A stretch of 46,612 nt of DNA from positions 1,949,524 to 1,996,135 of the forward strand of contig MU057744.1 in the NCBI GenBank assembly GCA_013265495.1, read 5' to 3'. Each line of letters opens with the position of its first letter. Position 1 is the stretch's first letter. This DNA comes from Vicugna vicugna. Taxonomy: Eukaryota. Made by a program: the position numbers and the translations under genes. Below the pieces are notes generated by a model that had not been told where the DNA came from, searched no databases, and saw nothing but the letters and a program-made list of their open reading frames with translations. Positions 8,001 through 11,000 of this stretch are shown here, in pieces.

Positions 8001-11000
8001 TCCCGTGGTTTAAGTACGGACCTTGGAGAATTAACATGTATTTTGCATCCTTGAAAATGAGTCGTGTGTGATTTTTAAAAGACAAAAAAGAAAATGCCCT
8101 TTCATTTGATCTGGGAGATTTTTGGACCACTTTTCATCTTCCCTAAATAAATGATCCTTAACCAGCTAGTTTATGGTCACCATTTTCCATTTTTTTTACA
8201 GTATTTAAAATCATTCGGGCAACATTTGACTAAGGAACATGACACATGCTTCACATGATAAGATATTCCAACTGGAAGAAACATGATCTTTGTAAATTAT
8301 GCTTCAGTATGTGTGCTAACTTTGTAGTGATCTCCCGAAGTTGGAAGCCTCTGATGCCATGTGCCTGACTTTCCCGTGGCTCAGTTCAGTGTGGGCCCCT
8401 GAGAGAGGCTGGTCTAGAAGTGTGGTTGGCAGCCGCTGAAGTGGGGTGTGCTCTCAGCGTGTGTGACGTTTGGTTCGCCTTTTCAGACGCTTGCTCCCCT
8501 GAGGAAGGGGGTTGTCTGTGGGCCCTCTCAGCGTTTTCTCCTTGCTGTTGCAGCGTCCTCGACCTCAATGCATTTGAGCGACAGAACAAAGCCGAGGGAC
8601 TCGGGATGGTGACGGAAGAAGGATCAGGTATTGACCACTTATGACTTACAATAGCATCACCTGTCCCCGCTTCTCTCCTGAAGTGAGTCCGTTGTCGGTA
8701 CCTTTTCGGTGCGGAGAGACACAGGGCTGTCTGCAGTGGACGGACGCTCCTGGGACTTGCTTGAGAGTCCCTGGTAGGGCACTCACACAAGCCCGCCTGT
8801 CCGTGTTGGTCGCTGACTCCTTTTTGTTCCAGAAATGCTGTAGGTGGCCCTTCCTCCCCTGAGCTGGGAGTAGATACAGGTCCCTTACCAGAGAATTATC
8901 AGTACAATTACAGGACACGTGGGTGACCCAAATCAGGAAACGTTTGATTTTCCTGGGCCCCGTGAGCAACTGCCAGGCTGCTTCAGTCTCCTTGGGATAG
9001 TGATGCTTTCAGGCCTTCCACCCCGGTGTCCCTGCCAGCTCTCCTTAGCACAGGGACCCTTCCGTCTCACATGCCCACATGTCTTTGCAAGTCCAAGTGC
9101 CTTAGTGAAATAAATTAAGGAGTGATTTTTGTGTGTAAATAACTCTGATCACTGAACTTACGTGCACACGAAAGTAACGACTCACATCATCTTAGAGCTT
9201 TGCTGCCTAGAAATACACGTACAAACTGGGCAGTTCAGCACGCAGCACATTTAAAGCAGAAGTAACTATTGTGGCACATTCGTTTCAATATTTATTAAGA
9301 CAAAAATCTTCAATATTTTTGGTTTTGATTTGTTTTTATTATTCTGTGTTTGATTTTTTAATTAATTTAGTTGCAGTAAGGCCCTGTGTGTTTATCTGTT
9401 TTTGCTCGTTTGGTCTGGTTTGGAGTTGTCACCTTATCAGTGTATTAGTTTTTGGAACATTGGGTCTTCTATAAAACTAATCTTACTGCAAAAAATAAAT
9501 TTTCTCCCCTCTGCCATTTGTAGTCGGTTTGGCTTTCTGAAATATTTTAGAGTTAACTAATCACTCTAATTATCTCTGTATATTTTTGTTCTCAGAATAG
9601 GACAAAGAATTAGCCGCATTTTTCTTCCTGTGTTCTAAAGACGATCATTTATACGTATTTTAACCTTGCTGCTACTGTAGAGATTGCTCCTGTGATTTTA
9701 TTTTCTGCTTGGCGTTTGAATGTGTAGGTTCAGCCATCGAGTATCAGTCGTACCATTACTTAATTGGATTGGCTTCCTTCAAGAGAAGCCACCTGTGGTA
9801 TTCCAGGTTTATTTAGGTTTTCTGAAAATGTATATTAAGCCAAATCTCTTCCTGACAAACGCTTGTGCCGACATTACAACTCCTGGCCTAGGGGACCCAT
9901 TCGGGGAACCCAGAGCCTCTGCAAATCTCAGGTCCCATTGTCTGCACACCTCTGATGTCTCACAGGAGTCCTGGGCGCTGCCCAGCTGTGAAGTAACTGA
10001 AAATGGAAGAATTCTCTGTCCAGAGTCTGCCTTCCCTCTCTCGGAATTAGACATCAGTTTCCTTTTCCTGACAGTAATTACCTAGTGTTCCCGAGGCCGT
10101 GGACGCAGTCCCAGCAGTTGTTCACGGTCACTGCTCCCGGCAGCTCCCACAGAGAATCAGTGGCCTCGCAGGTTTGCTTTAGGGCCTCCTGTTTTTTGTC
10201 AGCCAGATAAGACTGGAGTAACGGTGTGTGTCCCAAGTCAGAGATAACTCGGTGAGAGTGACCATCTGATGGGAGGTTTGTTCACTTCCCAACATGAGAT
10301 CGGTCTGGTTAGTTTATTCTTTGTGAAAGATACACAGAAGTAATTGCCCAAGTTGATTAACACGTTTTCTATTTAATTTCCTTATAAACAGCAAAACAAA
10401 AACAAAATCTCAACTTCTTTCTTTCTCCTCATTTCCTTTTCTTTCGACTACTGTAAATGTACCACCCTCCCTTCCTCAGTCATCACTCATGAGCGTGGTA
10501 ATTATTAAAAATGGGCTGGCTTTTCTTTTTTTGCTCCTTGATTTGTTAACGTTGTGTACAGCTTTAATAGTGACAGTTTTGTGCATTTTTTCCTTTTATA
10601 GACCGTTTTAACAAGTAGATTGTTTACTTGCCATTGTTCTGCATCCTGTTATTTTTTTTAATTTCTACTTCAAGCTTTCCTTTTTTTTTTTCTTTCTGTG
10701 AGGTTGTGCAGTGATTAACAGATGAGACATGAAGGGGCCACGAACATTTAAATTATGTTTTTGGATTTGTTGCGTTCTGTTCTTTCATTTTAAAACGTTT
10801 CTGTGGACCCTGTGTTTGCAGTTGTGTGTAAACGAGTGAGTCACAGACGTGTGCAGTCGTTCCCTGTGGCCCTTCTGTGCTGGACATGCCGTGGCTTTAT
10901 GGCTGCACCCAGTGGTGCCAGGAAACCAGTGGGGGTCCAGGTGGCCCGGGAAGAGCCCGGTCGCCTCCTGGCTGTCGGGCTCGGCCGGTCCCCTGCCAAG

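Follow-up and report, generated by a model that had tools for sequence, protein, structure and literature searches.

A probable 18-nt cassette microexon encoding VITHER in an RYR2 intron of Vicugna vicugna, and likely paralogue of RYR1 ASII

Introduction

The cardiac and brain ryanodine receptor gene RYR2 is a major locus for arrhythmia and encodes a Ca2+-store channel of neurons; inserts of 30 bp and 24 bp in it were reportedly described by George in 2007. Here we analyzed 46,612 nt of the Vicugna vicugna genome (GenBank assembly GCA_013265495.1, contig MU057744.1, positions 1,949,524 to 1,996,135 of the forward strand; hereafter, the window), and specifically an 18-nt microexon encoding the peptide VITHER, which an earlier prediction made from the letters alone (the original prediction) had placed in intron 84 of RYR2. 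The closest described system is the alternative exon ASII of the paralogue RYR1 (exon 83, residues 3865-3870, VINRQN), presented as developmentally regulated in the relevant passages of PMC3899969 and PMC5840707. In insects, RyR genes hold an optional 24-bp exon, "ASIV," near the RIH-associated domain, conserved from Drosophila (PMC3989282). For RYR2 itself, the passages of PMC12109991 that deal with splicing name exons 4 and 75 and an "islet-type" RyR2 (citing Takasawa 2010), and part of a recent preprint describes QKI-dependent splicing of exon 75 (bioRxiv 10.1101/2025.09.04.674271).

Full-text searches, which lay outside subscription journals, closed preprint supplements, VastDB, and Ensembl, returned no paper describing a RYR2 exon between exons 84 and 85. 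No entries for ryr1, ryr2, or ryr3 were found in the supplementary tables of two microexon papers, PMC12626424 and PMC7821500, tables that may index events by coordinates rather than by gene name.

Results

Alignment places the window within a mammalian RYR2 gene lying on the + strand; RYR3-like and RYR1-like loci are separate from it and lie at other sites of this genome. The full-length RyR2 model P0242 is colinear with the window in 19 tblastn segments (residues 3733-4866), and a 432-residue exon (27190-28485) shows 91-93% identity to mammalian RyR2 fragments and about 60% to RyR3 and RyR1. In the animal's own assembly (2.03 Gb), two further loci match exon 85, one RYR3-like and one RYR1-like. 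The exon numbers 84 and 85 are the presumptive human ones of the original prediction, and agree with human exon 90 being the 1.3-kb exon that lies five exons on. The features around the microexon are the following.

8554-8627, + strand: constitutive RYR2 exon "84," located by tblastn with the full-length RyR2 model P0242; AG acceptor; CAG/GT donor matching 6 of 9 consensus positions
10392-10477, + strand: AG-free, CU-rich pyrimidine tract of 86 nt upstream of the microexon
10478-10479, + strand: acceptor AG of the microexon, read from the sequence
10480-10497, + strand: probable alternative cassette exon of 18 nt, phase 1-1, reading (V)ITHER(G); orthologous to the VITHER insert that annotated RyR2 isoforms carry
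10498-10503, + strand: microexon donor, GT at 10498-10499, of moderate strength (6 of 9 consensus positions)
10498-10697, + strand: intron flank downstream of the microexon, rich in T (52% over 200 nt, with four runs of at least five T); a candidate U-rich enhancer
18353-18433, + strand: constitutive RYR2 exon "85," encoding (G) and 26 further residues, including the Glu equivalent to human E3848

The microexon has the structure originally given to it, with the acceptor AG at the end of cttcctcag, a GT donor, phase 1-1, and a stop-free reading as VITHER. The host intron (8628-18352) measures 9725 nt, in agreement with the predicted 9.7 kb, and holds the microexon 1852 nt past the upstream exon, which ends at 8627 and translates to 25 residues plus the first base of the next codon, and 7855 nt ahead of the downstream exon, which starts at 18353. 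As both flanking exons are of phase 1, the reading joined across the microexon (given over 16 residues) contains no stop. The tract upstream of the acceptor is indeed free of AG, the closest upstream AG lying at 10390-10391; this gap is the third longest in the intron (88 nt between AG starts), and the microexon donor, at 6 of 9, falls within the range of 5 to 8 seen in the 12 constitutive exons compared.

The same insert occurs widely in RyR2 proteins of other vertebrates. Among the partial RyR proteins matching the large exon, a fish RyR2 fragment (P0017, Oryzias javanicus) reads EEGS-VISHER-GEKV, and the region around its insert was used as a first query against longer proteins. Of 1906 significant proteins, the best 120 all carry a six-residue insert at the EEGS/GEKV junction, namely VITHER (115), VMTHER (2), VINHER (1), VISHER (1), and VLTHER (1), in shark, gar, teleosts, coelacanth, lizards, crocodile, and many birds; as the matches are ranked by likeness to an insert-bearing query, these counts reflect the breadth of annotation and not the frequency of inclusion. 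The bulk of the insert-bearing matches consists of NCBI predicted X-isoforms or UniProt entries. With a second query designed to favor mammals, lungfish and one mammal were added, the latter being Macaca fascicularis, whose RyR2 isoform X18 (XP_045250623.1) reads VITHER followed by the mammal-type GEKVLQ. At the level of protein models, the VITHER exon is conserved from sharks to mammals, and the identity of the peptide from shark to mammal indicates that selection has acted on the protein.

Counterparts of the microexon are also found within the same genome. At the same junction, the RYR3-like locus contains an 18-nt exon encoding LIVRER and the RYR1-like locus an 18-nt exon encoding VINRQN, both of which the original prediction had named. 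VINRQN is moreover present in the five RyR1 structure alignments shown and in the relevant parts of PMC3899969 and PMC5840707, and LIVRER in six RyR3 proteins. The RYR2, RYR3, and RYR1 exons are alike in having an AG acceptor, a GT donor, the same phase, and an AG-free CU-rich upstream tract (86, 58, and 310 nt, respectively). In bases, the RYR2 exon is identical to that of RYR3 at 14 of 18 positions and to that of RYR1 at 10 of 18, and RYR3 and RYR1 agree at 9 of 18; judged from these identity counts over 18 nt, the resemblance to the paralogous exons appears to exceed chance. Of the features of ASII-type microexons, the exon in the window thus shares the bases just given as well as the homologous junction (after ..GMV.E.G followed by S or T, and before GEKV..), the length of 18 nt, and phase 1-1. 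The junction, length, phase, and bases shared within one genome support the descent of these exons from one ancestral exon, in common with RYR1 ASII. The exon would then predate the duplication of the three vertebrate RyR genes and have been retained in RYR2, as had been proposed, a scenario to which both the paralogous exons of this genome and the occurrence of VITHER across jawed vertebrates point.

The splice pattern taken by itself is common, as the intron holds 24 in-phase, stop-free AG-N18-GT segments, a number that favors regarding the microexon as one of many such open segments of no biological meaning. Against this stand its first place when the 24 are scored for splice signals in a simple way (pyrimidines making up 0.72 of 25 nt, 86 nt free of AG, donor 6 of 9), the fact that it is the only one of them whose peptide matches an annotated RyR2 insert, the hexapeptide of 115 of the best 120 RyR2 matches, and the 14 bases of 18 in common with the RYR3 exon. 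We give a chance origin practically no weight, and consider it effectively refuted by the orthologue peptides, the macaque isoform, and the paralogue identity. As far as such comparisons go, the decisive evidence beyond chance is the related sequences, rather than the splice pattern.

Forms lacking the insert also occur. The junction was readable in 184 of 262 proteins, and 22 RyR2-type proteins read EEGS/GEKV directly. VITHER was absent in 14 of the members listed (15 listed, 40 read) from a 510-member RyR2 cluster, three sampled members of which, from Caretta, Ambystoma, and Tiliqua, carry other inserts at the junction. In the structure bank, all 12 RyR2-labelled sequences, as well as the RyR3 entry 9c1e, cover 45 residues, six fewer than the query (51), and so contain no insert; the RyR2 and RyR3 spans were read from alignment coordinates, and residue-level alignments were available for RyR1 only. 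The absence of an insert from canonical RyR2, as originally stated, holds for these 22 proteins and for all RyR2 PDB chains. RyR3 proteins likewise occur with LIVRER (the six mentioned above) and without it (for example P0030, P0056, and PDB 9c1e). The insert-less RyR3 and RyR1 models are P0030, P0056, P0062, P0074, P0089, P0091, and P0096, together with PDB 9c1e, and the sole RyR3 structure found (9c1e) is the minus form. These models and this structure suggest that the junction is alternatively spliced in all three paralogues. RyR2 gene models exist both with and without the exon, across species and within mammals; going by these models, the microexon appears to be a genuine alternative cassette whose presence is optional.

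An alternative is that the exon is a relic, namely a VITHER orthologue no longer spliced in mammals, or in this species, and surviving as an undecayed remnant. In line with this, the insert is absent from the six mammalian RyR2 models sampled, from five mammalian partial proteins, and from every solved mammalian RyR2 structure. Nothing has decayed, however, in either splice site, in the AG-free tract, in the frame, or in any of the six codons, and the peptide is identical to that of sharks; had these 18 nt of intron gone unused since the split of mammals and sauropsids, their unchanged survival together with their signals would be surprising. In addition, the macaque model contains the exon. 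We consider a relic very improbable. Given the intact exon, a peptide identical to that of sharks, and the predicted macaque isoform, the exon is probably used in this mammal and, as the original prediction had it, may usually be skipped in heart; its tissue pattern, its regulators, and its functional effect are inferred.

A role at the RNA level was also considered, in which the exon would be spliced but act mainly on the RNA instead of through its six residues, for example as a stepping-stone or decoy that helps or delays the removal of the 9.7-kb intron. The length of the intron, the long AG-free tract, and an exon too short for ordinary exon definition all agree with such a role. It is, however, hard to reconcile with conservation at the peptide level, since the variants VMTHER, VLTHER, VISHER, and VINHER are conservative single-residue changes, with paralogues that hold length and phase while their sequences diverge, and with the many annotated mRNAs that keep the exon in the coding sequence. 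In RYR3, moreover, the homologous exon sits in an interval of about 700 nt between its flanking exons, where a stepping-stone would be needless. This possibility appears to us slighter still than that of a relic.

The sequences flanking the microexon are unusual for the intron, as had been proposed for its U-rich flanks, with values at the 98th to 99th percentile. The 100 nt upstream rank at the 98th percentile for pyrimidine content and at the 99th for the count of CU motifs relative to 100-nt windows of the intron, and include seven PTB-like CU motifs, while the 100 nt downstream are 50% T, at the 98th percentile of the intron windows. Inclusion of the exon, which is too short for exon definition, is probably regulated. 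The 86-nt AG-free CU-rich tract fits PTB-repressed exons with distant branch points and probably holds both a distant branch point and PTB-type repressor sites, which are predicted features, and the U-rich downstream flank may aid inclusion. Three YCAY motifs within the microexon are dictated by its codons. RBFOX, QKI, and SRRM4 were each ruled out as an obvious regulator, owing to the missing GCAUG and ACUAAY motifs and the missing nearby UGC; over the 150 nt upstream, a single UGC occurs (at 10345), some 135 nt away from the acceptor, and none falls within 130 nt.

When included, the microexon would add six in-frame residues, VITHER, between the exon ending at 8627 and that starting at 18353. 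RyR2 chains of 4967 residues align from residue 3808, which places the insert between residues 3825 and 3826 and upholds the human numbering proposed earlier (S3825/G3826, with E3848 as the Ca2+ ligand). The Glu of LLCEGH, residue 3848 in the 4967-residue RyR2 and 3893 in RyR1, follows 23 residues past the insert, and E3848 is listed as a residue of the RyR2 Ca2+-binding site in the pertinent passage of PMC11674951. RIH_assoc (PF08454) begins 5 residues past the insert in P0017; the vertebrate microexon therefore lies 5 residues before the RIH-associated domain, the domain near which insect ASIV is described. With the six residues added, an irregular linker of the central (core) domain would become longer, in front of the helix of the Ca2+ site. 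The expected consequence would be a tuning of activation by Ca2+ and caffeine, or of the coupling between domains, rather than an on/off switch, and in this model the effect is most likely modest.

A second alternative cassette was found in the same intron.

17188-17220, + strand: second alternative cassette of 33 nt, phase 1-1, encoding 11 residues; donor G/GTAAGT matching 8 of 9 consensus positions; weak, purine-interrupted acceptor

Ten of its 11 residues are those of the insert of Caretta caretta RyR2 X6, and 8 of 11 are those of the Ambystoma mexicanum insert (APHFGSHRLRT). By sequence, the one intron contains two independent in-frame cassettes, of 18 nt and 33 nt, the latter being conserved. 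The 33-nt cassette is absent from all six mammalian models sampled, and its annotation in mammals may lag behind that of VITHER. The Tiliqua scincoides model (P0258, RyR2 X3) has a six-residue insert, ASGFST, that looks like a shortened or divergent form of the 33-nt cassette and not like VITHER. Three partial RyR models (P0011, P0020, and P0032) read through the intron at the junction and represent annotation errors; the P0020 translation resembles the intron just upstream of exon 85 in the window. Such read-through models suggest that small exons at this junction confuse gene predictors.

Elsewhere in the window, a GC-rich minisatellite occupies 3099-4575 (37-nt unit, 40 copies, 98% matches). 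About 100 nt separate its end from the RYR2 exon that follows (4674-4753), and it makes long spurious open frames in several reading frames.

Discussion

We consider it very probable that the 18-nt segment is a genuine and ancient alternative cassette microexon of RYR2, which inserts VITHER and is a paralogue of RYR1 ASII and of the RYR3 LIVRER exon. What the analysis shows directly is its anatomy, its conservation, its paralogy, and which public gene models do or do not contain it. The original prediction had called the microexon hidden while allowing that it might occur in predicted models. The second part was borne out by the isoform models that contain the exon; "hidden" overstates the case for the same reason. 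Public gene models of many vertebrates, a primate among them, already contain the microexon, which is functionally uncharacterized and not new; as annotation pipelines list it in many vertebrates, it ranks low as a discovery.

Besides the ranking of the database matches by likeness to the query, several points weigh against this interpretation. All six mammalian RyR2 models sampled (two from Ovis and one each from Bos, Cervus, Manis, and Eschrichtius) lack VITHER, and mammalian support consists of one predicted (XP_) isoform and the intact exon in the window. With regard to regulation, the enrichment in CU motifs is a compositional hint only, and a motif scan of the flanks found no GCAUG, ACUAAY, or UGC elements near the microexon. 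In the AlphaFold2 model of a LIVRER-bearing RyR3 fragment, the insert falls within a non-helical segment (residues 120-143) flanked by two helices, with a mean pLDDT of 50.5 and values below 50 for residues 110-141; at this low confidence, a flexible linker has weak evidence. Finally, the passages on RYR1 ASII in PMC3899969 and PMC5840707 deal with its developmental regulation and not with its function.

It is possible, if on balance doubtful, that mammalian RYR2 makes uncharacterized isoforms from both cassettes, ahead of the helix with the Ca2+-coordinating Glu, in certain cell types (neurons, endocrine cells, or smooth muscle) or at certain stages, and that these would shift the Ca2+ sensitivity of release. 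If so, the native non-cardiac channel would differ from the textbook RyR2, and diagnostics built on the canonical transcript would miss variants in both cassettes. Every solved RyR2 structure and, to our knowledge, every functional study uses the RyR2 form lacking both cassettes. The canonical RyR2 of structural, functional, and diagnostic work would represent only one isoform, and the plus-VITHER form and the 33-nt cassette merit an expression survey and a functional comparison.

The RYR2 microexon can be set beside several known systems. With the SRRM3/4-dependent microexons of neurons and islets it has in common a length of at most 27 nt, an in-frame insertion, deep conservation, an ion-channel gene, and unusual flanks. 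A UGC enhancer close upstream of the acceptor is a feature of the SRRM3/4-dependent neural microexons, and the 18-nt exon, while within their length range of 3-27 nt, differs from them in having no such close UGC between pyrimidine tract and acceptor. The published RYR2 variants, namely exons 4 and 75 together with inserts of 30 bp and 24 bp, are, like the microexon, small in-frame cassettes of the same gene with tissue-specific use; unlike it, they occupy other positions in the gene, and the passages on exons 4 and 75 name no exon between exons 84 and 85. The 24-bp exon (VTGSQRSK) was looked for in the window and was not found there.

The annotated VITHER isoforms of RyR2, such as those of Gallus gallus (X1, XP_025004802.1), Struthio camelus (X1, XP_068795351.1), Chiloscyllium punctatum (X1), and Latimeria chalumnae (XP_014340342.1), are protein models of other species and pipeline predictions, and agree with the window exon in gene, EEGS/GEKV junction, and all six residues. 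The LIVRER exon of RYR3 differs in its surroundings, with about 240 nt separating it from the upstream exon and about 420 nt from the downstream exon in this genome, and shares with the RYR2 exon the junction, the length, the phase, 14 of 18 bases, and the trailing E-R. RYR1 ASII belongs to another paralogue and has two of six residues in common with VITHER. Most adult skeletal-muscle RyR1 includes ASII, as do the solved RyR1 structures, while no solved RyR2 structure contains the RyR2 exon. What ASII and the RYR2 microexon share is the homologous junction, the length of 18 nt, phase 1-1, the AG...GT layout, a long AG-free CU tract, and the leading V-I.

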